Of a DNA stretch of 64,000 bases, positions 28,724-64,000 are shown one piece after another. The position numbers and the translations under genes were made by a program. Source of the stretch: Actinomycetota bacterium (GTDB lineage: Bacteria > Actinomycetota > Acidimicrobiia > Acidimicrobiales > SZUA-35). The stretch covers positions 8,173 to 72,172 of the forward strand of contig JBCCVL010000004.1 of the NCBI GenBank assembly GCA_039195375.1, written 5' to 3'. Below the pieces are notes generated by a model. It ran no database searches. It worked only from the letters and a program-made list of their open reading frames with translations, and had not been told where the DNA came from. Every line of letters begins with the position of its first letter. Position 1 is the stretch's first letter.

Positions 28724-28766
28724 GGCCGGCGGCCGAGCAGGCCGGGCCGGGTCGGACCCGGATTGG

Positions 28767-29771: not shown

Positions 29772-29830
29772 CCAGTCTGTCTACCGCCCGCCCATCCGCC
29801 CCACCACCGCCCCGACAGTAGGATCGACCC

Positions 29831-34322: not shown

Positions 34323-34402
34323 GGCACCAGGAACCGCCGTCGGCCGCTGCGGCTTCCCGGCTCGACCGGACCAGCACGGAGGCCCCGAAGTAGCATCGGT
34401 TC

Positions 34403-37129: not shown

Positions 37130-37140
37130 CCGCTGGCGCC

Positions 37141-37164
37141 GCACCGGACGACGTGTTCCGGTGC
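37141..37164 (+). terminator. Perfect 8-bp hairpin 11 nt after the stop
   Basis: GCACCGGA, 8-nt loop, TCCGGTGC. No U-tract. Confidence 0.45.
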
Positions 37165-37324
37165 ACCGGTTGGACCTGCGTGGAACCGACGTTCCAGACC
37201 CGTCGGCCCGGGCCATCGCCGAGACGCCAGGCGCCGCAACGGCCACGAGCAGGCTGAGAACCAGCTGAGACGCCGGGTCATGGCCTCAGGCTGCTCTCAG
37301 CCGCAGCGTGGTCTCCTGCGCCGT

Positions 37325-38770: not shown

Positions 38771-38865
38771 GCCTGGCCTGAGCCCGGTCCGAGCCCGGCC
38801 GATCGACCGCCGACCGACCGTCGACCGGCCCGCCGGAGCCGGATGGCGGTCGGTAGCGTGGGGCG

Positions 38866-40287: not shown

Positions 40288-40442
40288 CACCGGCCTCCAG
40301 ACCTCGCACCTCCCTGGCCGCCGTCGGCGGAGGAGAGCCATCGAGAGAAGAAGGCTCCAGCTCTGCCCTCGGGGCCTCCAACCCCTCAAAGATCGCGCCG
40401 TCGCGGCCGATCGGGTTCGTGAAACCCGAGGAGACGACGACC

Positions 40443-43508: not shown

Positions 43509-44086
43509 GCGTCCGCCGACTGCTGTTCAGCGTCCTCGGTGCTGCCATCGTGCTCGGCGCCGCCGGGTTGCTGACCCTGCGTGCCGTGACCACGTCGAGC
43601 GCCCGACTCAGCGCCTCGACCTCGGGGTCGGGCACGTTCGAGGCCGGCACCGTCGACCTCGCGCAGCCGGAGTCGATCGTCAACCTGCTGTTCGACGCAG
43701 ACGGCCTCTACCCCGGGGTCGTGATCCCGTCGTGTCTGGTGATCGGCTACGACGGCAGTCTCGACGCCGGCGTCCGCCTGCACGCAGCCAACGCCGGGGG
43801 CGACGGGCTGGAGGACCACGTCGACCTGCGGCTGTGGCTCCGGCGCTCCGGCGACTGCCCGGACGACGCAGGCCAGACCGCCGCCGACCGGGGACCGCCG
43901 ACCTTCGACGGACTCCTCGGCGACCTCTGGCGCACCCACCCCGACTACGACCGTGGCCTGATCCTCATCGATCAGGCCACAGCCGGCGATCGCCTGGTAC
44001 TCGACGCCGAGGTGGAGCTGCGCCACGACCCCGACGCCCAGGGTCGGACGACCGAGTTCACCATCACCCTCGAGGCCAGGCCATGA
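43505..44086 (+). CDS. TasA/camelysin-like protein 1 with a SipW-type signal peptide
   Basis: ATGA overlap with the upstream gene. Signal anchor plus ...SGSGTFEAGTVDL..., a YPG strand, and a C-terminal EFTITLEA. Two Cys. Confidence 0.65.
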   Translation: MSVRRLLFSVLGAAIVLGAAGLLTLRAVTTSSARLSASTSGSGTFEAGTVDLAQPESIVNLLFDADGLYPGVVIPSCLVIGYDGSLDAGVRLHAANAGGDGLEDHVDLRLWLRRSGDCPDDAGQTAADRGPPTFDGLLGDLWRTHPDYDRGLILIDQATAGDRLVLDAEVELRHDPDAQGRTTEFTITLEARP

Positions 44087-47000
44087 GGTGGCTCACTGGC
44101 ATCCCGCTCGATCGGGTCCGTCGCGCCGCAGCGAGACCGGACCAGCTGGCGCGCCTGGTCGCCGGCTTCGTCGCCTACCTCTACCTCGCCGTCGTGTTGT
44201 TGCTCGGCGCATGGCTGGTGGTCATCAGCCTGACGACCGGCTGGCGGCCGGTGGTGATCACCGGTGGCTCGATGCTGCCGACGCTTCGGGTCGGCGACGT
44301 CCTCCTGGTCGAGGACCACCCGGACGGGCTCCTCGGCCAGCGCTCGGTCATCACCTTCGAGCCGACCAGGGGCGATGGGGCGATCACCCACCGCATCCAC
44401 GAGGTGTTGCCCGAGTCCCAGACCTACCTCACCAAGGGCGACGCCAACGCCGACGTCGACAGCGATCCGGTCAGCCCGTCGCAGGTGCTCGGGGTCGGAC
44501 GGCTGGTCATCCCGCTGCTCGGCCTGCCCGTCATCTGGGGGCTGAACGGCGACTGGCCGGCTCTGGCCGCCATCGGTGTGCTCTCGATCGGTGCCGTCGT
44601 CATCGTGGTGTCCAACGCCGTCGGTGACCGGTCGAGCAACCGGTCCGGGTCGGGGCGGACCTCGGAGATGGCGAACCGGGGGATCCGCCGCGTCCGGTTC
44701 CTGGCCGGCCTCATGATCGTCAGTGGCCTGTACCTCGACGGCTCCAGCATCGAGGAGGTCGGCTGGGGGCCCGGCCGCAACCAGGTGGTGGCCCTCACCC
44801 TCGCCGTGCTGATCGCCGTCAACCTGATCTCGACCACCGCCTCCAGCCGGGGTCGCCACCTCGGTCGTGATGGCCCGCCCGACTGGCTCGTCCTGGCCGA
44901 GCTCGGCGCCGACACCGTCCTCGCCGGCGTCCTGATCGCCCTCACCGGCGGCTCGGGCATCGCCTGGGCCTTCATCGCCCTGCCGATCGTCGAGGCCGCC
45001 GTGCGGTTCCGACTGGTTGGCGCACTCCTCCACTGGGTCCTGATGACGCTGCTCACCGTCGGGGCCCGCTTGTTCGCGCTCGACCGCGGCGGCGTGCCGC
45101 TGTCGGAGATCATCAACGAGCTGGAGCAGTTGCTCGACCAGCTCGGGATCCTCCTGCTGCTGGTCATCCCCGGCGCCTACCTGACCGAGCAGCTCGTCAC
45201 CGACGTGATCCGCCAGGATCGGGCCACCGCGGTCGCCATCGAGCGGGCCCGGCTGCTCGAGAAGGTGGCCGAGACCGGCTACGAACTGAACCGGATCGGC
45301 AACGAGCTGTTCCAGACCCTCACCAGGGCCGTGACGTCGCTCGGGTTCGACCTCGGCGACGCTCATCTGCTGCTACCGGACGGGCGCTGGAAGGCGCTGG
45401 CTGCGTCACCCATCGAGCGGGATCGGGCGTTGCCGGAACCCGGCGAGGCCGGGAGCGGTCTCCGCACGGACGACCTCGGCATGAACGAGGTCCTCGTCGA
45501 CCACGACGATCCCGAGTTGTCCGAGGTCCTCAGCCTGCAGGCCCACGACCTGGAGATGCTGGCCCGGCTGACCGTGTCGACCGAGGAGGGGCGCCACGTC
45601 GTCGTCCGGGCCGCCAACCTGACCGGTTCCGGCCTCCGGGCCGGCAGCATCGATGCGCTCCGCCTCCTGACCGGCCAGGCCGCGGTGGCGATGCAGAACG
45701 AGCAGCTCGTCGACGAGCTGCAGGGCGTCCAGGAGGAGCTGGCCCAGCAGGCGTTGCACGACGCGCTGACCGGGCTGCCGAACCGGGCGCAGTTCCTCGA
45801 TCGGCTCGAGCGGGGCCTGGCGATGGCAACCGACCCCGAGCGGCGTCATGTCGTGATGTTCATGGACCTCAACGGGTTCAAGGCGATCAACGACTCGCTC
45901 GGTCACGATGCCGGCGATGCGCTGCTCATCGGGGTGGCCGGCCGGCTCACGTCTGCGGTCGCCGACGACGGCCTGGTCGCCCGGCTCGGCGGCGACGAGT
46001 TCACCGTGCTGTTGGAGCCGGTGGCCGACATCAACCGGGCCATGGCGGTGGCCCAACGCATCCACGATGCGGTGGCCGAACCGTTCCAACTCGGCGACGA
46101 GCGGGCCGAGGTCAGCGGCAGCATCGGGCTGGCCCCGGCCGAGCTCGGGCTCGGCGGGAGTGAGATCCTGCGCCGGGCCGACGTGGCCATGTATGCCGCG
46201 AAGTCGTCGAGGGCAACGCCCCGCATCACGATCTACCATGCCTCGCTCGACGGGCAGGACCAGCGGCGTGGTCGGCTCAGCGCCGAGTTCGTCAAGGCGC
46301 TCGAAGCCGGTGAGCTGCACCTCGTCTACCAGCCCCTCGTCGACCGCGACGGCGACATCCGTGGCGTCGAGGCGCTCCTGCGCTGGACCCACCGCGAGAT
46401 GGGGCCCGTCAGCACCGCCACCATCCTCGAACTGGCCGAGGCCGCCGACCGGGTCGACGAGCTGGCCGCCTTCATCTTCGGCACCGCGACGGCCAGCATC
46501 GCCGGGCTCGGTATCCCCCGCCACGTCGACTTCACCCTGGCGGTCAACGTCACCCCGACCGAGTTGGGCTCCCCGAACCTGGTCGAGTTGGTTCGCCAGT
46601 CGCTGGCCGACAGCCGTCTCGGAGCCGAACGGCTGATCATCGAGCTCAACGAGCGGGTGGTGGCCGACGGCGAGGGCTCGCTCGACAACATCCACCGGGT
46701 CGTCGCCATGGGGGTCCGGCTCGCCCTCGACGACTTCGGCGAGGGACGTACCTCACTCGGGCACCTCCGTGGCCTGCCGATCAGCCAGCTCAAGCTCGAC
46801 CTCGGCCTGGTGCAGCAGGCGGCCGAGTCCGACTCGGATCGCATCATCCTCGACTCGATGGTTGGCCTGGCCCACGACCTGCAGTTCGAGGTCGTAGCCG
46901 AGGGCATCGAGACCGAGAAGCAGCTGGAGGTCGTGCTCGGCGCCGGCGCTGATCTCCTCCAGGGGTACGGTCTCTACCGGCCGATGGAGCTCGATCGGCT

Positions 47001-47331
47001 CCGTCGGGTGCTCGGCGAGTTCGACCTGACCGGGCCGGTGACCCGGGCACTTCCCTTGCGTCCGCCAACGGGCCCGGGCCCGATCTCGGCGACGCGGCCG
47101 CCCCCGATGCCGACGCCGATCGTCGTCGACGAACCGGTCGCCCCGGTCGAACCGGCCATGCCCGAGGCCCCGACCAGACCGCCGGCCCGGGGCCCGGATC
47201 CGCCGGTTGCGATGTTGGCCGGCTCGCCCGGTGATGTCGGACCGCCGATCGATGATCCGCCGGCCGATCGGCGGTCGGTTCCGGCACCGCCGGCGCCCCC
47301 GACCCCGCCGAGCAGACGGGGGGTTGGCTGA
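44083..47331 (+). CDS. SipW-type (S26B) signal peptidase I fused to a polytopic membrane domain, a GGDEF domain and an EAL domain
   Basis: ATGA overlap. Peptidase: ITGGSMLPT, AITHRIHEV, TKGDANADVDSD. At least 6 further TM segments. GGDEF: NGFKAINDSLGHDAGD...RLGGDEFTV (about 45988-46002). EAL: YQPLV...EALLRW (46369), DDFGEGRTSLGHL, LKLD, VAEGIET, QGY. Pro-rich tail. Confidence 0.85.
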   Translation: MRWLTGIPLDRVRRAAARPDQLARLVAGFVAYLYLAVVLLLGAWLVVISLTTGWRPVVITGGSMLPTLRVGDVLLVEDHPDGLLGQRSVITFEPTRGDGAITHRIHEVLPESQTYLTKGDANADVDSDPVSPSQVLGVGRLVIPLLGLPVIWGLNGDWPALAAIGVLSIGAVVIVVSNAVGDRSSNRSGSGRTSEMANRGIRRVRFLAGLMIVSGLYLDGSSIEEVGWGPGRNQVVALTLAVLIAVNLISTTASSRGRHLGRDGPPDWLVLAELGADTVLAGVLIALTGGSGIAWAFIALPIVEAAVRFRLVGALLHWVLMTLLTVGARLFALDRGGVPLSEIINELEQLLDQLGILLLLVIPGAYLTEQLVTDVIRQDRATAVAIERARLLEKVAETGYELNRIGNELFQTLTRAVTSLGFDLGDAHLLLPDGRWKALAASPIERDRALPEPGEAGSGLRTDDLGMNEVLVDHDDPELSEVLSLQAHDLEMLARLTVSTEEGRHVVVRAANLTGSGLRAGSIDALRLLTGQAAVAMQNEQLVDELQGVQEELAQQALHDALTGLPNRAQFLDRLERGLAMATDPERRHVVMFMDLNGFKAINDSLGHDAGDALLIGVAGRLTSAVADDGLVARLGGDEFTVLLEPVADINRAMAVAQRIHDAVAEPFQLGDERAEVSGSIGLAPAELGLGGSEILRRADVAMYAAKSSRATPRITIYHASLDGQDQRRGRLSAEFVKALEAGELHLVYQPLVDRDGDIRGVEALLRWTHREMGPVSTATILELAEAADRVDELAAFIFGTATASIAGLGIPRHVDFTLAVNVTPTELGSPNLVELVRQSLADSRLGAERLIIELNERVVADGEGSLDNIHRVVAMGVRLALDDFGEGRTSLGHLRGLPISQLKLDLGLVQQAAESDSDRIILDSMVGLAHDLQFEVVAEGIETEKQLEVVLGAGADLLQGYGLYRPMELDRLRRVLGEFDLTGPVTRALPLRPPTGPGPISATRPPPMPTPIVVDEPVAPVEPAMPEAPTRPPARGPDPPVAMLAGSPGDVGPPIDDPPADRRSVPAPPAPPTPPSRRGVG

Positions 47332-47942
47332 TGGCCCGATCCCTGCTCGACCTGCACGACGCCGACGACGGCGGCACCATCGATGATCGCGAGAATCGGG
47401 TTGGCCGACTGGCCGCCGCTGCCTTGGCGGCGGCGGTTTCGGCGTTGATCATCGGTTCGCTCGTGGTGACGTTCAGCGACCGGGCGCTCGGGCCGGACGG
47501 CACGGTCGCGGCGGCCACGGTCACGTCGGGCACGATCTCGCTGGTCGACGACGACCAGGGGCGGTCGTTGTTCGACCTCGCCGACATGGCCCCCGGGCGT
47601 CCCGTCGTCCATTGCATCGAGCTGGTCTACGACGGCACGATCGTGCCCGTCGACCTGGCCATGCGGGCCGAGGCGTCCGGCGACCTGACCCGCTTCCTCG
47701 ACGTCGCCGTCGAGTCGGGCAAGGGCGGCGGCTTCGATGACTGCAGCGGTTTCGAGTCGACCGGCCAGGTCTACGGCGGGACGCTGGCCGAGCTCGCCGC
47801 CTCGGGGTGGCTCGATCTCGGGACGCTGGTCAATGCGGGCCAGCGCAGTAGCTACCGGATCTCGTTCGAGCTCCAGGATCGCCAGGAGGCACTCGGCCGC
47901 GCCGCCAACGCCTCGTTCGTCTGGGAGGTGACGCCGACATGA
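47331..47942 (+). CDS. TasA/camelysin-like protein 2
   Basis: TGATG junction. ...LVVTFSDRAL...ATVTSGTISL..., MAPGRPVVHCIELVYDG, and a C-terminal SFVWEVTP. Two Cys. Confidence 0.6.
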   Translation: MARSLLDLHDADDGGTIDDRENRVGRLAAAALAAAVSALIIGSLVVTFSDRALGPDGTVAAATVTSGTISLVDDDQGRSLFDLADMAPGRPVVHCIELVYDGTIVPVDLAMRAEASGDLTRFLDVAVESGKGGGFDDCSGFESTGQVYGGTLAELAASGWLDLGTLVNAGQRSSYRISFELQDRQEALGRAANASFVWEVTPT

Positions 47943-48721
47943 CCGAAACGACCGACACCAGCGGCAGGGGGCCGGACCCCGGGCCGATACGCGACGGGCG
48001 GGACACCCCCTCGGGCTCCGGCCCGACAGCCGGTCCGACCGCCGACCCGACGGCCGCGGCCGGCGATCGTCGACGCGTTGCGCTCCTCGTCGCCGCCTCG
48101 GTGGTGGTGGCGCTGCTCGGCGTGTCCGTCCCCGTCGGTGTCGCCCTGGTGAGCCGCAGCTCGTCGGCAAGCTTCGCCGATCGGGAGGTCCTGGCCACGA
48201 ACCGCCTCGGCGCTGCCACCCTCGACCTCCAGGTCGACGGCGGGTCGTCGAACTCCCCGCTCGTCGAGCTCGGCGAGGGTCCGCAGGCGATCGACGAGGA
48301 CACGAGCAACGCGGTGTTCGTCGCCACCAACCTCGCGCCCGGCGATCGTGTGTCCGGCCACCTGGAGATGACCAACCGGGGTGACCTCCCGTTGCGGTAC
48401 GGCCTCCAGGCGGTCAGTTCCGACGGGATGCTCGCCGAGTGGCTGCGGTTCGAGGCGTGGGTCGGGAGCGGAATCTGCTCGCCGGACCAGGCCGGACCCC
48501 GGTTGGTGAGCGAGGCCAGGGTCTCCGCCGAGCCGGCGGTCCTGCTGCCGCTCGCCACACCGGCGGGAGCGACCCCGCTGAACGTGTTGGAGCCCGGCGA
48601 GTCGACCCTGTGGTGCCTCGGCGCCACGCTGTTGCTGGAGACCCCGAACGAGGCCCAGGGTCAGGCGCTCGACGTGACCCTCTTCGTGCCGATCGAGCAG
48701 GTCGTCGAGGTCGGGCCGTGA
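47939..48721 (+). CDS. TasA/camelysin-like protein 3
   Basis: ATGA overlap. ...SSSASFADREVLATNRLGAATLDL..., NLAPGDRVSGHLEMTNRGDLPLRY. Two Cys. Confidence 0.65.
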   Translation: MTETTDTSGRGPDPGPIRDGRDTPSGSGPTAGPTADPTAAAGDRRRVALLVAASVVVALLGVSVPVGVALVSRSSSASFADREVLATNRLGAATLDLQVDGGSSNSPLVELGEGPQAIDEDTSNAVFVATNLAPGDRVSGHLEMTNRGDLPLRYGLQAVSSDGMLAEWLRFEAWVGSGICSPDQAGPRLVSEARVSAEPAVLLPLATPAGATPLNVLEPGESTLWCLGATLLLETPNEAQGQALDVTLFVPIEQVVEVGP

Positions 48722-52387: not shown

Positions 52388-52402
52388 GTGGCCAGTGGCC
52401 AC
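52388..52402. promoter_or_regulatory. Perfect 7-1-7 palindrome in the only intergenic gap of the operon
   Basis: GTGGCCA g TGGCCAC, 43 nt upstream of the ATG of TasA-like gene 4. Confidence 0.25.
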
Positions 52403-52444
52403 CCGATCCGCGCCGGCCACGACGCCGGTGCAGAAAGGCACGAC

Positions 52445-53068
52445 ATGTCCACCTCCCCTCAGGCCCCCTCCAGGCGGGCGCCGGCTCGGCGCCGGGGCAA
52501 CGGTGCCCGCATGCTGGCCAGTGTCGCCGTGCTTGCCCTCGCCGGCGGTGTGTTCACCGTGTCGTCGCTCGCGTTGTTCACCGACTCCGAGGACGTGTCC
52601 GGCAACGCCTTCACCACCGGAACGGTCGACCTGACCGCCACCCCGGCCACCGCCGTGGTGACGGCGGCAAACATGGCTCCTGGTGACCAGGTGACCAATC
52701 CGCTCGACGTCGCCAACTCGGGCACGCTCGAGCTTCGTTACTCGATGGCGTCGGCCACCACCGAGGACGTCCTGGCGGCCGAGTTGGTGCTCACCGTCAA
52801 GGAGGGGGTCACCACGTGTGACGACTCGAACTGGAGCGCCGACGGGACCACCCTCTACTCGGGGCCGCTCGGCTCGACCGGAGGCACGCCCGTCATCGGC
52901 GACCCGACGCAGGGATCGCAGGCCGGTGATCGGGTGCTGGCCGCCGGGGCCGACGAGACGCTCTGCTTCAACGTGACGCTGCCCCTGTCGGCCGGGAGCA
53001 ACGCCGAGGGCCAGTCGACGTCGGCCACGTTCACCTTCGAAGGCGAGCAGACCGCCAACAACCCGTAG
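52445..53068 (+). CDS. TasA/camelysin-like protein 4 (the most canonical SipW-type signal)
   Basis: ...VSSLALFTDSEDVSGNAFTTGTVDL..., NMAPGDQVTNPLDVANSGTLELRY, and a C-terminal ATFTFEGEQ. Two Cys. Confidence 0.75.
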   Translation: MSTSPQAPSRRAPARRRGNGARMLASVAVLALAGGVFTVSSLALFTDSEDVSGNAFTTGTVDLTATPATAVVTAANMAPGDQVTNPLDVANSGTLELRYSMASATTEDVLAAELVLTVKEGVTTCDDSNWSADGTTLYSGPLGSTGGTPVIGDPTQGSQAGDRVLAAGADETLCFNVTLPLSAGSNAEGQSTSATFTFEGEQTANNP

Positions 53069-53125
53069 CCGGGCGGCTCATCTCGACCGGTGACGTCGGG
53101 GTCACGGGACCAGCTGCGCTCGTGC

Positions 53126-54271: not shown

Positions 54272-54437
54272 GCCGATCCCATCGGCCCAGGTCCCCTGGT
54301 CCTGAGGACTCAGGCGGGTCCCGCTCGGCTGCGACCCGACTCAGTTCCGGGCCGGCTCCGCCGACGGGATGGGGTGCGGCCCGTCCAGCGCGGGCCTGTC
54401 GCCGATCAGCGAGAGCAGCAGCGAAGGAGGTACGGCG

Positions 54438-54515
54438 ATGTCGACATCCGGTGGTCCGGCAGCGGACACCGATCGATCACCGGCCGCCGGACCGCGCTCT
54501 CGCTCCGGATGGTGA
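54438..54515 (+). CDS. 25-codon upstream ORF with the strongest SD in the region, overlapping the start of the giant ORF
   Basis: GAAGGAGG (54423-54430), 7 nt, then ATG 54438. Peptide MSTSGGPAADTDRSPAAGPRSRSGW. Its stop TGA 54513-54515 overlaps ATG 54509 and GTG 54512 of the giant ORF (GTGA). Confidence 0.35.
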   Translation: MSTSGGPAADTDRSPAAGPRSRSGW

Positions 54516-57500
54516 GCCGGTCCGACCTCCGGCGTCGGGTGGCGACCTCGGTCGTCGCCTTCGTCGCGCTCCTGAGCCTGGTGGCGGGAACCCCGAGCCC
54601 CGTCCGGGCCCAGCCGATCGGGAACCAGGACGAGACCCCGACCACGACCGACCCGGGTGAGGCGAGCGATCCGGGTGGGTCGAGCGACCCGGGCGAATTG
54701 AGCGAGCCGACGCGGACGTCGTCGACGGACCCAGACGAGGCGACCGAGCCGGGGTCAGACGACCAAACGGGCCTGACACCAGCGGGTGAGGCGCCGGCCG
54801 ACGACGCCGAGCCGTCCACCGATGGTGAGGCGTCGCCGACCAATGAGGAGACGGCGTCGAGCGACGGGGAGGCGCCGACCGACCGCCCGGCACCGCCGGC
54901 GGCCCTGTTCCTCACCAGGACCGGCCGGTCGACGATCCTGATCACCGACCCGGCGACCGGCTCGACGACGGGGGAGCGCCCGCTCACCGGCGTCGACGCC
55001 GCAGCGCCGTCCGGCCTGACGGTCGACGGCGATGGCGAGGTCTACGCGGCCGACGGCGTCGCCGGGACGGTCGAGCGGTTCGACACCGATGACTCGACGT
55101 CGACGGTGGTCCTCGACCGGGTCGATCGAACCGATGCCGCCGTGCAGGCCGGGCTCGGGGACGCGCCGTTCCTGCCCCGCGGGCTCGCCGCTGGCGACGA
55201 CGGCACGCTCTACGTGGTCGACGCCGGCATCGACCGGGTCCTCGGCTTCGTCCCCGCCGGGCGGACCGGGACCCGGTACAACCGGCGCCCCGGGGTCGAA
55301 GCGCCACCGGTCCCGACGCTCGGCGCCGTCACCGGTGGGGCCCTCCGCGATCCGGTCGACGTGGTCGTCGTCGACGGCGAGCTGCTGGTCTCGGACCGCG
55401 GTGACGACGACATCGAGCGCTACGACGCCGTCACCGGCGAGCACCTCGGCACCCTGGCCACCCTCGAGCCGGGTGATCGACCGGCCGGTCTCGCGCTCAC
55501 CGACGACGGGCGCCTGCTCGTCGCGCTGTCCGGCCGGGGCGCGGTCGCCGCGATCGACCTGGCCGCCGGCGCTGTCGACGACGAGCCGCTGGTCGACGGC
55601 CTCGTCGGCCCGTCCGACGTGACGGTCGCCGCCGCCGGCAACGGCGACCCAGCCGACGACGTGCTGTGGGTCGCCGACGCCTGGGCCGGCACGGTGACCG
55701 CCCACGACACCGACTCCGGCGACCCGACCGGTCTGGCCATGACCGTCGACGACGGCACGCTCCCGTCGCTCCTGGCCGCCCGCTCCGAGCCGGCGCCGGC
55801 CGCCGAGCCGGGCGAACCGCTCGACGGCGACCCCGCCGTCGACGGCGATCCGGCAACAGACGATTCGGCCACCGGCGACGCACTGGACGCCCCACCCGGC
55901 GACGATCCCGTCCTCCCGACCAAGGACATCGACAACGCCGTCGACGGCACCCTCGACCTGTCGGAGCGGACCGACCAGTGGCTCGACCAGCTCGGCGACC
56001 CGGACGAGGGCGTCGAGTTCGCAACCAACACCGGCGCGGCCGACGTCGACGTCGACTTCGCCCTGGTCACGGAGACCTACGACGCCGTCATCGGCGAGGG
56101 TGAGGTCGCGCTGGTGGCCGAAGGCGAGTCGGTCACCGATGCGGTGGTCATGGAGGTGATCGGCTCGGCCCCCGACCCGGACGGCCGGATCCTCGAGACG
56201 TCGCCGATCCGGACCGACGTCGACCCGTCGTCGGAGAACGCCGTCGCCGACGCCCTCCCACCGGTGGTCGACGAACCGGGTGCCGCCGCCGCACCGGGCG
56301 GCAACCCGACCGTGGACCCCGACCTGGCCGACGAGGACGACGCCATCGAGGTCGAGGAGGTCCTCCCCGGCGTCGACGTGGTGTACTCGGCCGACGACGG
56401 CGACGTCGAGTACAGCTTCGTGATCGAACCGGGCGCCGACCCGGACGAGATCACGCTCGACTTCGACGGAGCCGAGGCCGTCAGCCTCCTCCCGAACGGC
56501 GACCTGCTGATCGAGTCGGAGTCCGGGCCCGACTACCGCTCGACCGCGCCGATCACGTATCAGGAGGTCGATGGCGAGCCGGTCATCATCCCGAGCGGCT
56601 ATCTGATCCGCGACGACGGCACCGTCGGCTTCACGCTCGGCGCCTACGACCCGTCGCTGCCGGTTGTCATCGACCCGACGTTCGTCGCCGTGAACAGCGC
56701 GAGCGGCTCGTACACCTCGGGCTCGACGATCGACCTGCCGGTGCCGACGACCGTGGCCACCGACGATCTGATGCTCGCCCACGTCGCCTGGAACATGTGG
56801 GGCAACACGAACGACATCACCCCGCCGGCCGGGTGGAACACCGTCAACGAGACGGCGGCCAACGGCCTGGTCCACGGCGTCTACTGGCGGATCGCCACCT
56901 CGTCGGAGCCGTCGAGCTACAGCTTCACCCTCACCGGCTCGACCGAGACCGCGGCCGGCTCGATCACCGTCTACGACGGGGTCGACACCAGCTCACCGAT
57001 CGATGTGTCCGCAACGCAGGGCAACTCGGCTGGCGCCGCCATCGTCGCGCCGTCGGTCACCACGACGGTCGACGACGCCACGCTGGTGGCGCTGTGGTCG
57101 GTCAGGGACGATGGCTCGTTGACCCAACCGGGTGCCATGACCGAGCGGATCGACGTGACCAGCTCGACCGGCGACACGGCCGACGAGGAGACGGTGGCGG
57201 CCGTGGCCGAGGAGACCATCGGCGCCGCCGGCTCGACCGGTACCCGGACCGCCACCGTCGACGCCTCAGCCGGTTCGATCGGCACCCTGGTGGCCCTCAA
57301 CCCGGCCAGCGGCGGTGGCGGCGGCAGCAATCTGGTGATGGTCACGGCCAACGGAGGATTCACCAGCGGCAACGACTCGGCCAAGCGCACCCTGTTCGAG
57401 GGCTGGGGTTGGACCGTGACCGCCATCGACGACAACTCGTCGGCCAGCGCCTACAGCTCCGCGGCGGCGGCCAACGACGTGATGTTCCTCTCGGACACGG

Positions 57501-60500
57501 CGGGCAATGTCCAGAACAACGCCCGCTCGCTCGACGTCGGGCTCGTCGTCGAGGCGTACAGCAACATCGAGAACAACCTGTTCGCCAGTTCCTCGTCGCA
57601 GTCGTTCACCTCGAACACGTCGATCACGATCACCGACAACAGCCACTACATCACGTCGCCGGTCTCCACCGGTTCGCTCACGATCCAGACCTCGTCCGAC
57701 GACGTCAACTACTGGCGGTCCGACGTGACGGCGTTGCCGGCCGGCGTCGACGTCCTCGCCACGTCGCCAACGTCGTCTCAGCACTCGGCGCTCTTCGTTG
57801 CCGAAACCGGTGGCACCTTGTATTCGGCCAACACGGCGCCGAATCGACGGGTCTGGTTCCCGAGCGACGCCGCCAATCCCTCGCTGTTCACGTCCGACTA
57901 CGAGACCCTGCTGGAGCGGTCACTCGACTGGGCCGCCGGCAACGATGTCGTCGCCGCCGTCGCCTCACCGACCGCCACGGTGAACTCGACCGGCGACTCG
58001 AGCGACAACAACGCCGGCGACGACATCTGCGACACCGGTAACACCAACGCCGCCGGCGAGCCCGAGTGCACCCTGCGGGCCGCCATCCAGGAGGCCAACG
58101 CCTCCTCGCTGACCAACACCATCCGCTTCCTGATCCCGACCGCCGACTCCGGCCAGTCGTCCGGCGTCTGGACCATCAGCTCGGGCTCGGCGCTGCCGAC
58201 GATCACCGCGCCGGTCGTCGTCGACGGCACGACCCAGGACGGCTACTCGACGCCGGTCGTCGCCATCGACGGCTCGAGTCAGGGCTCGGGCGACGGGCTG
58301 GTCGTCTCCGGCGACGACGTGACGATCCGAGGCCTCAACATCCACTCGATGCCAGGCGACGGCGTGCAGGTGACGGGAGACCGGATCACCTTCACCGACA
58401 ACCACATCGGGACCAACGCCGCTGGCACCGCGGTCGACGGCAACGGCGACGAGGGCGTGCAGATCGACGGGGCCGACGCCGTCGTCAGCGGCAACATCAT
58501 CTCGGCCAGCGGCCAGAACGGCCTGACCATCCTGGGCGACGGCCACCGAGCCAGGGTCGTCGGGAACAAGATCGGCACCGATGTCACCGGCAACGTCGGC
58601 TTCGGCAACGGCCAGGAGGGCATCGAGATCACCGGGGCCGACGACGTCGTCATCGGTGAGCCAGGCAACGGCAACGTCATCTCGGGCAATGCCTACGCCG
58701 CCATCAACGGCTGGAACAACACCCCGAGCAACACGGTCGTCCAGGCCAACCTGATCGGTGTCGGTGCCGACGGCACCACGTCGCTGCCGAACAGCACCAC
58801 GGCGGGTGAGGGTGGCATCACCATCCGGACGAGCGCCCAGGACTGGCTCATCGGCGGGACCGGGGCCGGCGAGGGCAACACCATCGCCAACAACATCGGC
58901 GACGGCATCCAGCTCGAAGCGATCAACGGCACCGGCGACAACGTCGCCATCCTCGGCAACTCGATCCGGGCCAACACCGGGCTCGGCATCGACCTGGTCG
59001 ATGACGGCGTCACCGCCAACGACGCCTCCGACCTCGACACCGGCCCAAACGACCTCCTCAACTTCCCGGTCGTCACCTCGACGTCGGAGTCGGGCGGGAC
59101 GATCACCGTCGACTACGACCTCGACGTCCCCTCCGGCAACTACCGCATCGAGTTCTCCACCAACCCTTCCGGGGCCGACCCGGACGGCCATGGCGAGGGC
59201 GAGACGTTCGTCCACGCCCACTCGATCGCCCACACCGGTTCGGGTGTCGAGTCGTTCTCCACGACGTTCGCCGGCTCGACGGGTGCGGTGGTGACGGCAA
59301 CGGCCACCGAGGACCTCGGCAGCGGCAACTACGGGTCCACGTCGGAGTTCTCGCTCGAGGCCTACGTCGCCCCGACGTCGCTCGACCCGGTCGTGCTCGA
59401 CGGGGTGCAGTCGGGGACGACGACCCTCCCGAGCGGTTCGACGTCGGTGACGGTCACGATCGACGCCGTCGACACGACGAGCTCGTTCCTCGAGTTCGGC
59501 GTGCGGGGGACCGGGACCGAACCGGGCCGGCTCCAGATCATCGGCGAGCTGACCAACTCGACCACGGTGACGTTCACTCGCGACAACACCGGCGTCGACG
59601 TGGTGATCGACTGGTCGGTCGTCGAGTTCAGCTCGGGGGTGACCGTCCAGCGCGGCGTGAGCTCCAACTCCGGTGGCGCCGTGGTCGACACGACGATCAG
59701 TGCCGTCGACCGCAGCCGGAGCTTCGTGCTCCTCGGCGGCTACCAGGTCGACGGCGTGACCTTCGACGGCAACGACTTCGTCCAGGCCAGCCTGACCTCG
59801 GCCACCAACCTGCGGCTCGCCGTCGACTTCGCCACGCCGAGCACCGTCCCCTGGCAGGTGATCACGTACAACGACGCCACGGTGCAGCGGGGGACGGCGA
59901 GCTTCGGCGCAAGCGACGCGTCGGCGACGGCCGCGGTCTCGACCGTCGACACGACGAAGGCCTGGCTCGTCTACAACTACTCGACCACGGCCGGCACGAC
60001 GACGAACATCGGCCAGAAGCTGGTCCGCGGCCGCATCACCGACGCAACGACTCTGACGTTCGACCGATCGAGCACCGGGCAGGCCGTCGACCTCCGGTGG
60101 GAGTTGATCGAGTTCACCGACTCGACGACGGTGCAACACGCCTCGGCCTCGTTCGGGACCTCGGTCTCGGCCCAGGGGGTGACGATCAGCGCCGTCGATC
60201 GCGGCCGGGCCATCGCCACCGGCGGTTACCTCGGCCAGGGTGGCCGAACCCCGTTCGCCTCCGACGACAACCCCAACTACGCCTGGTTCACCTCGGAACT
60301 GATCGGCGCAACCGAGCTCCGCCTCCAGCGGGGGGTCACCGGAGCGGCCGCCGACCTCGGATGGTTCGTCATCGAGTGGGTCTGCGCCGACAGCGACGCC
60401 GACGGGATCACCGACTGCCACGAGGATGCGAACACCGACGGCGACAACGACCCGTCGACCAACCCGGGTCCCGACACCGACGGCGACACGACGCCGGACT

Positions 60501-63500
60501 ATCTCGACAGCGACGACGACGGCGACGGCTCGGCAACCAGCTCCGAGAACGCCGATCCGAACGGCGACGGTGACCCCCGGGATGCGCTCGATGCCGACCG
60601 GGACGCTCAGCCCGACTACCTCGACGTCGAGGTCACCAGCAGCGGGCTCCCGGTGCTGGGTGAGCAGAAGATCTCGGCCTCCGTCGGTGGTCTGAGCGGT
60701 CCGACGAACTCCGGCGGCAACTTCGGGTCATCAGCGGCGGCCATCGGGGACATCGACGGGGACGGGATCAACGACGTCGCCGTCGGTGCGCAGAACGATG
60801 GCGACGGGGGCACCGCTCGCGGCGCAGTGTACGTGCTGTTCCTCAACGCGGACGGCACCGTCAAGGGCGAGCAGAAGATCAGCTCGACCCAGGGTGGGCT
60901 CACCGGCCCGCTGACCAACGCCGACCTGTTCGGTCGTGACATCGAGGGGCTCGGCGACGTCGACGGCGACGGGATCGGCGACATCGCCGTCGGCGCGTTC
61001 GGCGACGACACCGGTGGCGGTTCGTCCGGCGCGATCTACGTCCTGTTGCTCAACGCGGACGGCACGGTCAAGGGCGAGCAGCTGATCTCCGAGGGGGCCG
61101 GCGGCTTCACCACCGCGCTCGACCCGGAGGACCGCTTCGGTCTCGGCATCGCCGCCATCGGCGACGTCGACGGGAACGGCGTCCGGGACGTGGCCGTCGG
61201 TGCCCCCCGAGACGACGACGGCGGGACCGATCGGGGCGCGGTCTACGTGCTCTTCCTCGAGGCCGACGGCACGGTCGTCGGCGAGCAGAAGATCTCGGAC
61301 ACCACGGGCGGGCTCGCCGCCGCGCTGGACAACGAGGACCACTTCGGCGAGTCGCTCACCTCACCCGGTGACGTGGATGGCGATGGGGTCGTCGACCTGG
61401 CGGTCGCCGTCGGCGGCGACGATGACGGCGGGACCGATCGGGGCGCGGTCTACGTGCTCTTCCTCAACAGCGACGGCACCGTCAAGGGCGAGCAGAAGAT
61501 CTCCCAGTCGACCGGCGGCGGCCCTGGGCTCGACGACGGCGACGCCTTCGGTTCGGACGTGACCGGTATTGGTGACCTCGATGGCGACGGTGTCGAGGAC
61601 CTGGCCGTCGGCGCCATCGGTGACGACGACGGCGGTACTGATCGCGGAGCCCTCTACCTGCTGACCCTGGCAAGCGACGGCACCGTCAGTGCAACCGAGA
61701 AGCTCAGCTCGACCGCGGGCAGCCTGACCGGACCGCTCGACGACAGCGACGAATTCGGCAGTGGTCTGGCCGGGATCGGTGACCTCGACGGCGATGGGGG
61801 GCTGAACCTCGTCGTCGGCGCCCACCTCGACGACGACGGCGGTTCCGCCCGCGGTGCGGTCTACGTCCTCGACCTCAGCAGCGGGTGCCTCGACACCACC
61901 GACACCGACTCCGACGGCCTCTACGACTGCTTCGAGACCCCGTTCGGCGACACCGACGGCGACACGACTCCGAACGAGCTCGACGCCGACGACGACGGCG
62001 ACGGCACCAACACCTCGGCCGAGAACGCCGACCCGAACGGCGACGGCAGCCCGCAGGACGCCGTCGACACCAACCGGAACGGCATCCCCGACTACCTCGA
62101 CGTCGGCGCCTCCCCAAGCCATGCCTCGGTCGCCGGCGAGCAGAAGATCAGTGACTCGCTCGGCGGGCTGACCGCCACGATCGACGACAGCGACATGCTC
62201 GGTCAGTCCCTGGCCTCGATCGGCGACGTCGACGGCGACGGGATCGCCGATCTCGCCATCGGGGCGCCGGGCGACGACGACGGCGGGTCGGCCAGGGGCG
62301 CAGTCCACATCCTGTTCCTCAACACAGACGGGACCGTGAAGGGTGAGCAGAAGATCAGCGACACCGCGGGTGGGCTGACTGCGACGCTGACCAACAGTGA
62401 CGAGTTCGGTCATGCGATCTCGGGCCTCGGCGACGTCGACGGCGACGGGATCGCCGACATCGCCGTCGGGACCTGGGGTGACGACGACGGGGGCACCGAT
62501 CGCGGCGGGATCCACGTGCTGTTCCTGAACGCCGACGGCACGGTGAAGGGTGAGCAGAAGATCAGCGACACGGCGGGTGGGCTCGCCGCGACGCTCGACG
62601 ACGGCGACCGCTTCGGTGCCGCGTTGTCCGGACTGGGTGACGTCGATGGGGACGGCATCAACGATCTCGCCGTCGACGCCCGCTACGACGATGACGGTGG
62701 CACCGGCCGCGGCGCCGTCTACGTGCTGTTCCTCGACGACGATGGCACGGTCAAGGGTGAGCAGAAGATCAGTGACACCGCCGGTGGGCTCACCGCGGCA
62801 CTCGAGAACGGCGACAACTTCGGGTCAGGAACGGCTGGCATCGGCGACCTCGACGGCGACGGCGTGCCCGATCTCGTCGTCGGCGCGACCGGAGACGACG
62901 ACGGTGGTTCGGCCACCGGCGCCGTCTACGTCCTGCTGCTCAACAGCGACGGCACCGTGAAGGGTGAGCAGAAGATCTCGGACACCACGGGTGGCCTCGT
63001 CAACCCGATTGCCGACAACCAGCTCTTCGGCCGTGACGTCACCGGCCTTGGTGACTATGACGGGGACGGCACGATCGACATCGCCGTCGGCAACTGGGCT
63101 GCACCGGGCACCGGCTCCGCCCGCGGCGGGATCCGCGTCCTGTCCCTCGACGCCGCCGGCCGGGTCATCGAGGATCGGATCATCGACGACGTGTACGGCG
63201 GCCTGACCGCGTTGCTCGACGCCAACGACCGGTTCGGGACAAGCGTCGCCAGCCTCGGCGACCTCGACGGCGACGGCGGCCTGAACCTGGCCGTCGGCGC
63301 CCGCTACGACGACGACGGCGGCACCGATCGTGGCGCCGCCTACATCCTGGATCTGCGGACCCGGGCCGACGCCGACGGCGACGGCCTCTGGGACCACCGG
63401 GAGGACGCCGACACCGATCTCGACGGCAATCCGGCCACCAGCCCGGGGCCGGACACCGACGGCGACACCACCGTCGACTACCTGGACCCGGACGACGACG

Positions 63501-64000
63501 GCGACGGCGCGGCCACCACCACCGAGAACGCCGACCCGAACGGCGACGGCCATCAACGCGATGCCCGCGACTCCGACCACGACGGCCAGCCCGACTACCT
63601 CGACCCCGACGTCGGCTCCGGTGCAACGCCGGTCCGATCGGAGCAGAAGATCAGTGACACGACGGGCGACCTCTCGGCCACGCTCGACGACAGCGACGCC
63701 ATCGGAACCGCCGTTGCCTCGATCGGTGACCTCGACGGCGACGGGATCGGCGACCTGGTGGTCGGTGCGCCCGAAGACGACGACGGAGGCGCCGGTCGTG
63801 GTGCCGTGCACGTGCTCTTCCTCGACGCAGACGGCACGGTCGCATCGGAGCAGAAGCTCAGCTCAACCACCGGTGGGCTGACCGGGCCGCTCGACAACGG
63901 CGACCGGTTCGGGGCGTCGGTGGCCGCCATCGGTGACGTCGACGGCGACGGCGTGCTCGATCTCGCGGTCGGCGCCGACCAGGACGACGACGGTGGCTCG
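54509..64000 (+). CDS. Giant secreted multidomain adhesin-like protein, at least 3164 aa, 3' end outside the window; not in the ORF track
   Basis: My own translation of the + frame (positions = 2 mod 3) is open from 54260 to 64000, and no + ORF in this frame is listed. In order: signal peptide RRRVATSVVAFVALLSLVAGTPSPVRAQP; an acidic S/T/P region; NHL-like repeats (LYVVDAGIDRV, LLVSDRGDDDIERYD); a CSLREA-like CTLRAAIQEAN plus parallel beta-helix repeats; NDASDLDTGPNDLLNFPV; three W-x-V-I/E-F repeats; then TSP3-like Ca-binding blocks and FG-GAP repeats. Confidence 0.85.
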   Translation, partial: MVSRSDLRRRVATSVVAFVALLSLVAGTPSPVRAQPIGNQDETPTTTDPGEASDPGGSSDPGELSEPTRTSSTDPDEATEPGSDDQTGLTPAGEAPADDAEPSTDGEASPTNEETASSDGEAPTDRPAPPAALFLTRTGRSTILITDPATGSTTGERPLTGVDAAAPSGLTVDGDGEVYAADGVAGTVERFDTDDSTSTVVLDRVDRTDAAVQAGLGDAPFLPRGLAAGDDGTLYVVDAGIDRVLGFVPAGRTGTRYNRRPGVEAPPVPTLGAVTGGALRDPVDVVVVDGELLVSDRGDDDIERYDAVTGEHLGTLATLEPGDRPAGLALTDDGRLLVALSGRGAVAAIDLAAGAVDDEPLVDGLVGPSDVTVAAAGNGDPADDVLWVADAWAGTVTAHDTDSGDPTGLAMTVDDGTLPSLLAARSEPAPAAEPGEPLDGDPAVDGDPATDDSATGDALDAPPGDDPVLPTKDIDNAVDGTLDLSERTDQWLDQLGDPDEGVEFATNTGAADVDVDFALVTETYDAVIGEGEVALVAEGESVTDAVVMEVIGSAPDPDGRILETSPIRTDVDPSSENAVADALPPVVDEPGAAAAPGGNPTVDPDLADEDDAIEVEEVLPGVDVVYSADDGDVEYSFVIEPGADPDEITLDFDGAEAVSLLPNGDLLIESESGPDYRSTAPITYQEVDGEPVIIPSGYLIRDDGTVGFTLGAYDPSLPVVIDPTFVAVNSASGSYTSGSTIDLPVPTTVATDDLMLAHVAWNMWGNTNDITPPAGWNTVNETAANGLVHGVYWRIATSSEPSSYSFTLTGSTETAAGSITVYDGVDTSSPIDVSATQGNSAGAAIVAPSVTTTVDDATLVALWSVRDDGSLTQPGAMTERIDVTSSTGDTADEETVAAVAEETIGAAGSTGTRTATVDASAGSIGTLVALNPASGGGGGSNLVMVTANGGFTSGNDSAKRTLFEGWGWTVTAIDDNSSASAYSSAAAANDVMFLSDTAGNVQNNARSLDVGLVVEAYSNIENNLFASSSSQSFTSNTSITITDNSHYITSPVSTGSLTIQTSSDDVNYWRSDVTALPAGVDVLATSPTSSQHSALFVAETGGTLYSANTAPNRRVWFPSDAANPSLFTSDYETLLERSLDWAAGNDVVAAVASPTATVNSTGDSSDNNAGDDICDTGNTNAAGEPECTLRAAIQEANASSLTNTIRFLIPTADSGQSSGVWTISSGSALPTITAPVVVDGTTQDGYSTPVVAIDGSSQGSGDGLVVSGDDVTIRGLNIHSMPGDGVQVTGDRITFTDNHIGTNAAGTAVDGNGDEGVQIDGADAVVSGNIISASGQNGLTILGDGHRARVVGNKIGTDVTGNVGFGNGQEGIEITGADDVVIGEPGNGNVISGNAYAAINGWNNTPSNTVVQANLIGVGADGTTSLPNSTTAGEGGITIRTSAQDWLIGGTGAGEGNTIANNIGDGIQLEAINGTGDNVAILGNSIRANTGLGIDLVDDGVTANDASDLDTGPNDLLNFPVVTSTSESGGTITVDYDLDVPSGNYRIEFSTNPSGADPDGHGEGETFVHAHSIAHTGSGVESFSTTFAGSTGAVVTATATEDLGSGNYGSTSEFSLEAYVAPTSLDPVVLDGVQSGTTTLPSGSTSVTVTIDAVDTTSSFLEFGVRGTGTEPGRLQIIGELTNSTTVTFTRDNTGVDVVIDWSVVEFSSGVTVQRGVSSNSGGAVVDTTISAVDRSRSFVLLGGYQVDGVTFDGNDFVQASLTSATNLRLAVDFATPSTVPWQVITYNDATVQRGTASFGASDASATAAVSTVDTTKAWLVYNYSTTAGTTTNIGQKLVRGRITDATTLTFDRSSTGQAVDLRWELIEFTDSTTVQHASASFGTSVSAQGVTISAVDRGRAIATGGYLGQGGRTPFASDDNPNYAWFTSELIGATELRLQRGVTGAAADLGWFVIEWVCADSDADGITDCHEDANTDGDNDPSTNPGPDTDGDTTPDYLDSDDDGDGSATSSENADPNGDGDPRDALDADRDAQPDYLDVEVTSSGLPVLGEQKISASVGGLSGPTNSGGNFGSSAAAIGDIDGDGINDVAVGAQNDGDGGTARGAVYVLFLNADGTVKGEQKISSTQGGLTGPLTNADLFGRDIEGLGDVDGDGIGDIAVGAFGDDTGGGSSGAIYVLLLNADGTVKGEQLISEGAGGFTTALDPEDRFGLGIAAIGDVDGNGVRDVAVGAPRDDDGGTDRGAVYVLFLEADGTVVGEQKISDTTGGLAAALDNEDHFGESLTSPGDVDGDGVVDLAVAVGGDDDGGTDRGAVYVLFLNSDGTVKGEQKISQSTGGGPGLDDGDAFGSDVTGIGDLDGDGVEDLAVGAIGDDDGGTDRGALYLLTLASDGTVSATEKLSSTAGSLTGPLDDSDEFGSGLAGIGDLDGDGGLNLVVGAHLDDDGGSARGAVYVLDLSSGCLDTTDTDSDGLYDCFETPFGDTDGDTTPNELDADDDGDGTNTSAENADPNGDGSPQDAVDTNRNGIPDYLDVGASPSHASVAGEQKISDSLGGLTATIDDSDMLGQSLASIGDVDGDGIADLAIGAPGDDDGGSARGAVHILFLNTDGTVKGEQKISDTAGGLTATLTNSDEFGHAISGLGDVDGDGIADIAVGTWGDDDGGTDRGGIHVLFLNADGTVKGEQKISDTAGGLAATLDDGDRFGAALSGLGDVDGDGINDLAVDARYDDDGGTGRGAVYVLFLDDDGTVKGEQKISDTAGGLTAALENGDNFGSGTAGIGDLDGDGVPDLVVGATGDDDGGSATGAVYVLLLNSDGTVKGEQKISDTTGGLVNPIADNQLFGRDVTGLGDYDGDGTIDIAVGNWAAPGTGSARGGIRVLSLDAAGRVIEDRIIDDVYGGLTALLDANDRFGTSVASLGDLDGDGGLNLAVGARYDDDGGTDRGAAYILDLRTRADADGDGLWDHREDADTDLDGNPATSPGPDTDGDTTVDYLDPDDDGDGAATTTENADPNGDGHQRDARDSDHDGQPDYLDPDVGSGATPVRSEQKISDTTGDLSATLDDSDAIGTAVASIGDLDGDGIGDLVVGAPEDDDGGAGRGAVHVLFLDADGTVASEQKLSSTTGGLTGPLDNGDRFGASVAAIGDVDGDGVLDLAVGADQDDDGGS
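60640..64000 (+). repeat. 207-bp (69-aa) FG-GAP/VCBS-type coding tandem repeats arranged in roughly 1.48-1.50 kb super-modules
   Basis: gagcagaagatc recurs at 60662, 60869, 61283, 61490, 62138, 62345, 62552, 62759, 62966 and 63641. Steps within a module are 207 or 414 nt. Consensus: FGxxxxxIGDxDGDGxxDxAVGAxxDDDGGxxRGAVYVLFLNxDGTVKGEQKIS. Confidence 0.9.

Follow-up and report, generated by a model that had tools for sequence, protein, structure and literature searches.

What kind of protein is encoded at the right-hand end of a 64,000-nucleotide stretch of actinobacterial DNA, where a plus-strand reading frame of more than three thousand codons runs off the sequence and the list of open reading frames (ORFs) gives minus-strand ORFs instead? 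The stretch, hereafter the window, covers positions 8,173 to 72,172 of contig JBCCVL010000004.1 (assembly GCA_039195375.1) from a metagenome-assembled genome (MAG) of the Acidimicrobiales. The frame lies close to genes for TasA-like proteins, SipW-type signal peptidase domains and a cellulose-synthase-like glycosyltransferase. An earlier note, made from the letters of the window and its ORF list, had proposed a giant adhesin gene here. The gene is real, and its product (hereafter the giant protein) is read, with a probability of roughly three in four, as a very large and strongly acidic extracellular protein of an Acidimicrobiia-type actinobacterium, one that is exported by the Sec route, binds calcium and is of adhesin-like or matrix-scaffold type. 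The gene is nonetheless ordinary in kind, joining the class of giant repetitive adhesins.

A Reading Frame Without a Stop

The last stop codon in the plus frame given by position = 2 mod 3 occupies 54257-54259, and from 54260 the frame is open to the window end at 64000. These 3247 codons contain no stop where 58.9 are expected from the local base composition (P ~1.5e-26), and the other five frames carry 11-97 stops each across the same stretch. Counted from the ATG at 54509, the frame holds 3163 complete codons and one partial codon, in agreement with the earlier claim of an unbroken product of at least 3164 residues. The gene is missing from the ORF list because its stop codon lies beyond the window, and ORFs that run off the source DNA are excluded by the listing rule. 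In its place the list does contain the five minus-strand ORFs to which the earlier note had pointed (54755..56875, 57965..60421, 60731..61342, 61361..62515 and 62825..63811).

The note had described these five ORFs as compositionally skewed, motif-free antisense shadows, and each part of that description is borne out. From 54509 onward the plus frame has GC contents of 0.68, 0.52 and 0.92 at codon positions 1, 2 and 3, the usual pattern of genes in a 72% GC genome. The minus-strand ORFs show ~0.88-0.95, 0.47-0.53 and 0.59-0.76, their first position being GC-high because it overlies the third position of the real gene. They are rich in Val, Gly, Arg, Asp and Ala, and none of the five matches a Pfam family at E<=0.01. 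As a coding test, three non-overlapping blocks were aligned to the closest orthologue, here called L003 (71% identical). Differences at codon positions 1, 2 and 3 numbered 123/102/204, 80/45/146 and 80/56/196 in the three blocks, and 106-163 codons per block had changed synonymously only. This excess at the third position, together with the synonymous changes, shows that the plus frame is under purifying selection. The region from 54509 to beyond 64000 is therefore a real gene, of which the visible part is the 5' two-thirds or less. An ORF rule that needs a stop thus hid the largest gene of the window and put antisense shadows in its place; scans of GC-rich genomes should include ORFs that run off the sequence and check GC by codon position.

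Start Site and Export Signal

Three starts are available to the frame: GTG 54263, GTG 54374 and ATG 54509. The two GTG codons were rejected, since neither yields a signal peptide and L003 conserves both the Met at the ATG and the signal peptide that follows. This putative Sec-type signal peptide (Table 1) was read directly from the sequence. It consists of a basic stretch (RSDLRRR) and a 17-residue hydrophobic core, with VRA preceding QP at the predicted cleavage site, and it is the sole hydrophobic 19-mer among the 3163 visible residues. The other relatives likewise start with signal peptides, and the proposal of a signal peptide in the earlier note is thus well supported. The NCBIfam model for the SipW-dependent type, TIGR04088, does not match the giant protein. 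Compared with sortase-anchored proteins of Gram-positive bacteria, an N-terminal signal peptide is present, judged from sequence features, and no LPXTG-like motif occurs in the visible 3163 residues.

The visible protein is strongly acidic, with 545 Asp and Glu residues against 124 Lys and Arg. There are six cysteines, grouped as three closely spaced pairs: the CSLREA motif holds one, and the other two each mark the start of an Asp-rich linker. This arrangement fits an extracellular protein.

Modular Architecture of the Giant Protein

Profile hidden Markov model scans find that the NHL, CSLREA, Beta_helix and FG-GAP families all reach their curated cutoffs, which upholds the corresponding module calls made earlier from the letters (Table 1). 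In the acidic linker that follows the signal peptide, Tandem Repeats Finder (TRF) detects a repeat of period 18 at 54645-54709. The NHL model (PF01436) scores 27.7 bits on the whole protein and 43.7 bits, over four stretches, on the segment alone (cutoff 20), and the segment therefore qualifies as an NHL-repeat region. The SGL model gives 27.6 bits on the same segment, with weak matches to Vgb_lyase and Lactonase as well, and a sequence search of the PDB links the region weakly to the NHL domains of TRIM2/3/71. A PDB sequence search with aa 1-2050 returned marginal hits only.

Table 1. Coordinates of the giant gene, the modules of its product and the neighbouring cluster in the window.
Feature	Residues (aa)	Position	Strand	Basis or remark
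Giant gene, 5' part		54509..64000	+	Open frame, GC3 (GC at codon position 3) 0.92, position-3-biased substitutions vs L003, conserved start
Putative Sec-type signal peptide, MVSRSDLRRRVATSVVAFVALLSLVAGTPSPVRA, cut before QP	1-34	54509..54610	+	Read from sequence; conserved in L003
Acidic linker rich in Pro/Thr/Ser/Asp/Glu	35-135	54611..54913	+	Sequence; 18-bp tandem repeat
NHL-repeat beta-propeller region	136-425	54914..55783	+	NHL PF01436, SGL
DUF7948 (PF25778)	~561-724	56189..56680	+	99-105 bits (cutoff 27), match aa 612-724
domA, all-beta sandwich/jelly-roll, no Pfam family	725-935	56681..57313	+	AlphaFold2 (AF2) pLDDT (predicted local distance difference test) ~90, all strands
domB, alpha/beta, class-I glutamine-amidotransferase-like fold, no Pfam family	940-1150	57326..57958	+	AF2, fold matches
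CSLREA-type motif (DICDTGNTNAAGEPECTLRAAIQEAN), then right-handed parallel beta-helix	1151-1520	57959..59068	+	TIGR04214, PF13229
~105-aa module after beta-helix	1521-1625	59069..59383	+	Recurs in relatives; no Pfam match
Repeated beta-rich region	1626-1957	59384..60379	+	About four units ending W-x-h-h-E-F/W; no Pfam match
Asp-rich linker 1	1958-2040	60380..60628	+	Begins with Cys pair (1959, 1970) and DxDxDGxxDC
FG-GAP module 1, six 69-aa blades	2041-2460	60629..61888	+	207-bp period, FG-GAP model, AF2, Foldseek
Asp-rich linker 2	2461-2535	61889..62113	+	Cys 2460 and 2474
FG-GAP module 2, six blades	2536-2950	62114..63358	+	81% identical to L003 aa 3544-3958
Asp-rich linker 3	2951-3035	63359..63613	+	Sequence; relatives
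FG-GAP module 3, first two blades, cut by window end		63614..64000	+	89% identical to L003 aa 4044-4171
Cellulose-synthase-like family-2 glycosyltransferase with PilZ		40110..43508	+	First clearly assignable cluster gene
Weak TasA-like protein		43505..44086	+	Weak Pfam match
SipW-type (archaeal-type) signal peptidase I domain fused to GGDEF and EAL		44083..47331	+	TIGR02228 55.5 bits (cutoff 51.85)
Two weak TasA-like proteins		47331..47942, 47939..48721	+	Weak Pfam match
SipW-type peptidase I domain fused to DUF2341 and LamG, ~1300 aa		48439..52365	+	TIGR02228 60.9 bits (cutoff 51.85); Laminin_G_3
TasA/camelysin-like gene 4, SipW-dependent-type signal peptide		52388..53068	+	Peptidase_M73 42 bits; TIGR04088 29 bits (cutoff 19)
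Methyl-accepting chemotaxis protein (MCP) signalling-domain protein, 381 aa		53126..54271	-	Between TasA-like gene 4 and giant gene

Beyond DUF7948 lie two domains that belong to no Pfam family. domA and domB were modelled together with AF2 on a 37-row alignment (mean pLDDT 88.4, predicted TM-score (pTM) 0.71). The domA model has only weak fold matches in the PDB. The best matches of the domB model (2a9v_C, 1i1q_B and 1i7q_B; E 2e-4 to 5e-4, TM-score 0.62-0.68 on the target) are class-I glutamine amidotransferase subunits. However, domB has no cysteine and its relatives show no conserved Cys column, so that the modelled domain keeps the amidotransferase fold without the catalytic nucleophile, and a Cys-His-Glu triad is not found. 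The residues conserved in it are E1015, H1046, R1113, R1114, R1137 and W1141. Each of the two domains is found, alone or in tandem, in many uncharacterized secreted proteins, other phyla included (examples of proteins with domA or domB are P0009-P0012, P0016 and P0019). The pair in the same order makes up the C-terminal two-thirds of ~600-aa prepilin-type (type IV pilin-like) proteins from Syntrophobacterales MAGs, which carry an N-terminal G-Y-T-L-I-E methylation motif and match Pfam N_methyl. By analogy the pair may form a binding head, for which this pilin-like mounting is the best hint available. Both domains are candidates for new families and are offered, as two unannotated extracellular domains, for family curation.

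The CSLREA and beta-helix calls differ in strength. CSLREA_Nterm (TIGR04214) reaches 25.3 bits against a cutoff of 25 (aa 1157-1197) and is marginal, whereas Beta_helix (PF13229; aa 1263-1416) scores 28.3 bits on the whole protein and 41.6 on the segment, with a cutoff of 25.9. Both models are above cutoff and the motif sits at the N-terminal edge of the helix. As in the CSLREA surface proteins defined by TIGR04214, ECTLRAAIQEAN directly precedes a right-handed beta-helix, which the family definition requires, and database fragments of the relatives bear the name 'CSLREA domain-containing protein'. The giant protein differs from that family in a score just over the cutoff and in using the unit as one module among many. 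A literature search returned nothing on the function of the CSLREA domain. The ~105-aa module trails every beta-helix copy in L003 and in three further relatives (L006, L007 and L008). The repeated beta-rich region after it (aa 1626-1957) is kept in L003 and L005 and absent in L004, L006 and L008.

From aa 1958 onward the visible protein consists of three modules, each an Asp-rich linker (~80 aa) followed by six 69-aa FG-GAP blades, the third being cut by the window end. TRF recovers a 207-bp period, equal to one 69-aa blade, and so agrees with the repeat length given in the earlier note. The FG-GAP model (PF01839) scores 184.2 bits on the whole protein (cutoff 22.1) over at least 10 stretches, and 104 bits over 6 stretches on module 1 alone; the DxDxDGxxD motif is present in 14 of the 14 visible blades. 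The AF2 model of linker 1 and module 1 has a mean pLDDT of 86.6 and a pTM of 0.80, with blades above 90 and the linker at ~50, and its 24 strands form six four-stranded blades. In Foldseek this model finds its best PDB matches in the integrin alpha5, alphaV and alpha4 propellers (E ~5e-20, TM-score ~0.5), and at the sequence level the blades match the integrin alpha blades that bind calcium. The model thus has an FG-GAP propeller fold with loops of the calcium type, metal binding being predicted from the motif. The linkers had also been called TSP3-like; the DxDxDGxxDC motif and Asp-rich loops on which this was based are there, but Pfam TSP_3 matches neither the whole protein at E<=0.01 nor the isolated linker 1 at E<=1.

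In their blades, which score far above cutoff, their DxDxDGxxD loops and their modelled propeller, the modules resemble integrin alpha and other FG-GAP proteins (PF01839, PF14312 and PF13517). In contrast to the seven blades of integrin alpha, each module has six repeats, modelled as 6 x 4 strands. The giant protein also strings its modules in series with Asp-rich linkers between them, and its visible part lacks a beta-subunit partner, thigh and calf domains or a membrane anchor. At least 3952 database proteins share the FG-GAP module at E<=1e-20; many are stand-alone proteins of ~457 aa, and 'integrin alpha' and 'FG-GAP repeat protein' are frequent annotations among them. The metagenome loci recovered with the distal part of the FG-GAP array encode unrelated FG-GAP proteins from other phyla. 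Several of these proteins end in NYPNPFNP-type tails, which are putative type IX secretion sorting domains.

A Family of Shuffled Giants

Among species-representative genomes, orthologues turned up in MAGs assigned to Acidimicrobiales, Acidimicrobiia and 'Actinomycetota'. The ORFs of L003 (on a 470-kb contig), L006, L007 and L008 (on a 4.87-Mb contig) are still open after 4671, 4417, 4201 and 4319 codons, respectively; these counts are lower bounds, as the frames remain open at the end of the DNA examined. The L003 gene runs at least 500 codons past the region matching module 3. Orthologous genes would continue on contigs JANQPB010000044.1 (reverse strand, below position 251260), JAWPMS010000001.1 (above 4171645), JBCCFL010000027.1 (below 12460) and JBCDAU010000010.1 (below 39765). 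Since the orthologous ORFs are still open at such lengths, the full protein is probably well over 4500 aa.

Database proteins that carry the whole head are a handful, all partial, and those inspected end abruptly. A search with aa 136-1150 gives 188 proteins at E<=1e-30, of which about six to ten have the full head. In each of three assemblies P0001, a protein of 1961 aa that is 48-50% identical, is cut off by the contig end within the first Asp-rich linker, and P0041, P0043, P0048 and P0050 end abruptly or in seemingly frameshifted sequence. A literature search found nothing on the family. The gene thus adds a protein family of more than 4000 aa, so far seen solely as fragments in Acidimicrobiia MAGs.

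Sequence comparison indicates that the orthologues shuffle and multiply their modules. L003 has ~1000 extra residues between its counterparts of FG-GAP modules 1 and 2, made up of an unmatched stretch, a second beta-helix and the module that follows it. L007 begins with three copies of domB, and L008 contains six beta-helix units.

A Predicted Adhesin and Its Alternatives

What would such a protein do? It would be exported together with TasA-like fibre subunits and exopolysaccharide, and its expression or activity would follow cyclic di-GMP (c-di-GMP). Stiffened by calcium, the propellers and the Asp-rich linkers between them would form an extended stalk, and the N-terminal head (NHL, domA, domB and beta-helix) would bind surfaces, polysaccharide or other cells. 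In this way the giant protein, presumably in contact with the fibres, would help tie cells into the matrix.

Several points weigh against this adhesin or scaffold role. All of the evidence is MAG sequence, and the C-terminus lies beyond the window and beyond the sequence of every relative examined, so that an anchor (LPXTG or other) or a terminal effector is neither confirmed nor excluded. The beta-helix and NHL/SGL folds occur in enzymes too, and calcium binding is predicted from motifs alone, the linker models being of low confidence. In the window and in L003 an opposite-strand MCP gene breaks operon continuity, and L004 has no TasA-like genes within 7.7 kb upstream. The signal peptide does not fit the SipW-dependent type, so that any direct biochemical link to the SipW domains would be hypothetical.

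In working mode the closest parallels come from Gram-negative bacteria, where LapA (Pseudomonas fluorescens) and MpIBP (Marinomonas primoryensis) are giant repetitive adhesins that depend on calcium. As in these proteins, thousands of residues, a very acidic composition, repeats expected to be stiffened by calcium and ligand-binding modules at one end come together, and the genetic association with c-di-GMP signaling recalls LapA/LapD. However, LapA and MpIBP use type I secretion, a C-terminal RTX signal and Big/Ig-type repeats, whereas the giant protein has an N-terminal Sec signal, FG-GAP propellers and an actinobacterial host. The Sec-type signal peptide also argues against an RTX-type I protein; no RTX model matches the visible part, and no retention module of the LapG/LapD type was found. 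By analogy the giant protein may thus be likened to LapA and MpIBP in how it would work, and it probably falls outside their group because of its Sec signal peptide, its FG-GAP instead of Ig-type repeats and its host.

If an adhesin or scaffold role is confirmed, TasA-type matrix biology would reach actinobacteria of sea and soil that have not been cultured. No established concept is changed, giant calcium-binding adhesins with repeats being familiar as a class; the conserved link to an unusual TasA/SipW/c-di-GMP cluster is moderately interesting and deserves follow-up. A more far-reaching version, which we regard as tentative, would make the giant protein the dedicated adhesive or anchoring partner of an undescribed actinobacterial fibre system of the TasA type. 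Here c-di-GMP, through the peptidase-GGDEF-EAL protein and the PilZ glycosyltransferase, would coordinate the secretion of four TasA-like subunits, exopolysaccharide and the giant protein, whose head would carry domA and domB as portable binding domains that are mounted elsewhere on type IV pilin-like subunits.

The alternatives have less support than an adhesin or matrix role. In one of them, the main task of the giant protein would be enzymatic remodelling of matrix polysaccharide, with the beta-helix acting as a lyase or hydrolase, the NHL/SGL region being lactonase- or lyase-like and the repeats just holding the enzyme in the matrix. The Beta_helix match and the weak SGL, Vgb_lyase and Lactonase matches would suit such an activity, as would the enzyme-type fold of domB and the cellulose-synthase-like glycosyltransferase cluster that the gene adjoins. 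However, generic fold families aside, no catalytic family scores above cutoff, and domB lacks the amidotransferase nucleophile. The beta-helix and its following module occur up to six times in L008, which is the behavior of a structural repeat, and propellers and linkers account for most of the protein mass. An enzyme of this kind is judged unlikely.

A different concern, which the earlier note had raised, is that repeats of this kind can collapse in short-read assemblies, in which case the gene would be real and its displayed structure partly an artefact of modules collapsed or mis-joined in the array. The absence from the window of the ~1000 aa that L003 has between its first and second FG-GAP modules would be expected from such an error, and relatives' contigs do break at the array. 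Three assemblies of one species (L001, L002 and L005) end at the same orthologue residue, a position in the first Asp-rich linker shortly ahead of the FG-GAP array, the contig of L004 ends inside its second FG-GAP module, and many of the Actinomycetia versions are incomplete, on contigs 1.3-2.4 kb long. The array thus systematically breaks short-read assemblies, despite well-diverged copies in the window. DNA identity there is 50-77% between blades (mean 64%) and ~69% between modules, and no exact repeat in the gene exceeds 42 bp. The copies are therefore too diverged to be confused at normal k-mer sizes, and collapse inside the window is unlikely. The frame is unbroken over all junctions, and L006, L007 and L008 also differ in their modules, so that gain and loss of modules is real in the family. 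The structure as displayed is therefore quite improbable as an artefact; the particular difference from L003 may reflect either biology or assembly.

Thirdly, the giant protein might be a polymorphic toxin or serve in contact-dependent competition; what is visible would then be a delivery stalk, with the C-terminal toxin and a downstream immunity gene out of view. Indeed, neither the window nor any relative examined includes the C-terminus, close relatives differ by module shuffling of the sort known from polymorphic toxin systems, and a type VII-kind FtsK/SpoIIIE-FHA ATPase is encoded 28 kb upstream. Yet the signal peptide is of the classic Sec kind, the 3163 aa contain no RHS, PT-HINT, LXG, WXG or filamentous-haemagglutinin modules in Pfam or NCBIfam, and the conserved linkage to TasA-like fibre and exopolysaccharide genes is a matrix context, all of which leaves a toxin very improbable. 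The reverse reading, in which the minus-strand ORFs would be genuine and the long plus frame would have arisen by chance from high GC, has a negligible probability: long spurious ORFs are common at 72% GC and the best minus frame has just 11 stops in 9.7 kb, but a chance opening of the plus frame (P ~1e-26), its GC3 of 0.92 against the high first-position (0.88-0.95) and lower third-position GC of the minus ORFs, and its many significant domain matches and syntenic orthologues, where the minus ORFs have no Pfam match, refute it as far as sequence evidence goes.

The TasA/SipW/c-di-GMP Cluster

The giant gene stands at the 3' end of a conserved cluster that comprises the PilZ glycosyltransferase gene, four TasA-like subunit genes and the two SipW-type peptidase fusions, one of them with GGDEF and EAL. 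The earlier note had placed the gene directly beside a SipW/TasA locus; this neighbourhood is real, and its synteny is strong. The placement is not exact, because the MCP gene lies between TasA-like gene 4 and the giant gene, 237 bp before the latter. Likewise SipW-type domains are present, but fused to larger proteins, and there is no separate SipW gene. Among the relatives examined the MCP gene is shared with L003 alone (82% identical), where the same gene order is kept and the MCP gene is interposed as in the window; the other syntenic loci lack it. In L001/L005, L006, L007 and L008 the giant gene follows directly after TasA-like gene 4 and the SipW-DUF2341-LamG gene, with gaps of a few to ~50 bp. 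Protein identities among the syntenic relatives range from ~30% to 92%, and the arrangement is therefore conserved across well-separated species.

TasA fibres and the archaeal bundling pili of the TasA superfamily provide the background for these neighbours (PMC9674648, PMC10151520, PMC9245690). Fibre formation by the products of the cluster is predicted. Four TasA/camelysin-like paralogues are encoded, of which only 52388-53068 is clearly above the Pfam cutoff and carries TIGR04088; the other three match at E 7.6e-4 to 0.07, and their positions are conserved in relatives. Neither TIGR04088 nor the TasA/camelysin model (PF12389) matches the giant protein, whereas both match the 52388-53068 product. 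In having TasA/camelysin-like proteins next to archaeal-type signal peptidase I domains, and a large accessory gene linked to them as tapA is, the locus resembles tapA-sipW-tasA of Bacillus subtilis. It differs in that the giant protein contains no TasA-like or TapA-like domain, in the fusion of the peptidases to GGDEF-EAL and DUF2341-LamG, and in the number of TasA-like paralogues.

In the 44083-47331 product, GGDEF and EAL score 140 and 178 bits. The joining of a signal peptidase to c-di-GMP turnover domains is unusual, and it is kept in relatives, single alignments spanning the fusion in L001, L007 and L008. The sequence of this protein suggests that secretion of the TasA-like proteins may be coupled to c-di-GMP signaling through the fusion. 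In every relative but L004, the SipW-DUF2341-LamG gene keeps its place immediately before the TasA-like gene. Its ORF as listed, 48439-52365, overlaps the preceding gene by 283 nt, and its true start is for this reason probably later than 48439. A scan of 52900-54700 gave neither a sigma-70-like promoter nor an intrinsic terminator, which means little in a high-GC actinobacterium, and at the gathering threshold Rfam matches nothing in the window.

Further upstream, a protein of ~1630 aa with FHA and FtsK/SpoIIIE ATPase domains (21108-26009, plus strand) has the architecture of type VII (EccC/EssC-like) ATPases. The genes that follow have no evident link to the giant gene: an alpha/beta-hydrolase fused to an adenylate/guanylate cyclase domain (27380-29059, minus), a large LuxR-type regulator with an AAA ATPase domain (29822-32554, plus), a DUF3179 protein (33006-34400, minus) and an RPE65-type carotenoid oxygenase (34394-35758, plus). 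Directly upstream of the PilZ glycosyltransferase, three consecutive plus-strand ORFs (36149-40287; ~326, 546 and 476 aa) have GC3 of the coding type and no Pfam match, and may belong to the same matrix cluster.

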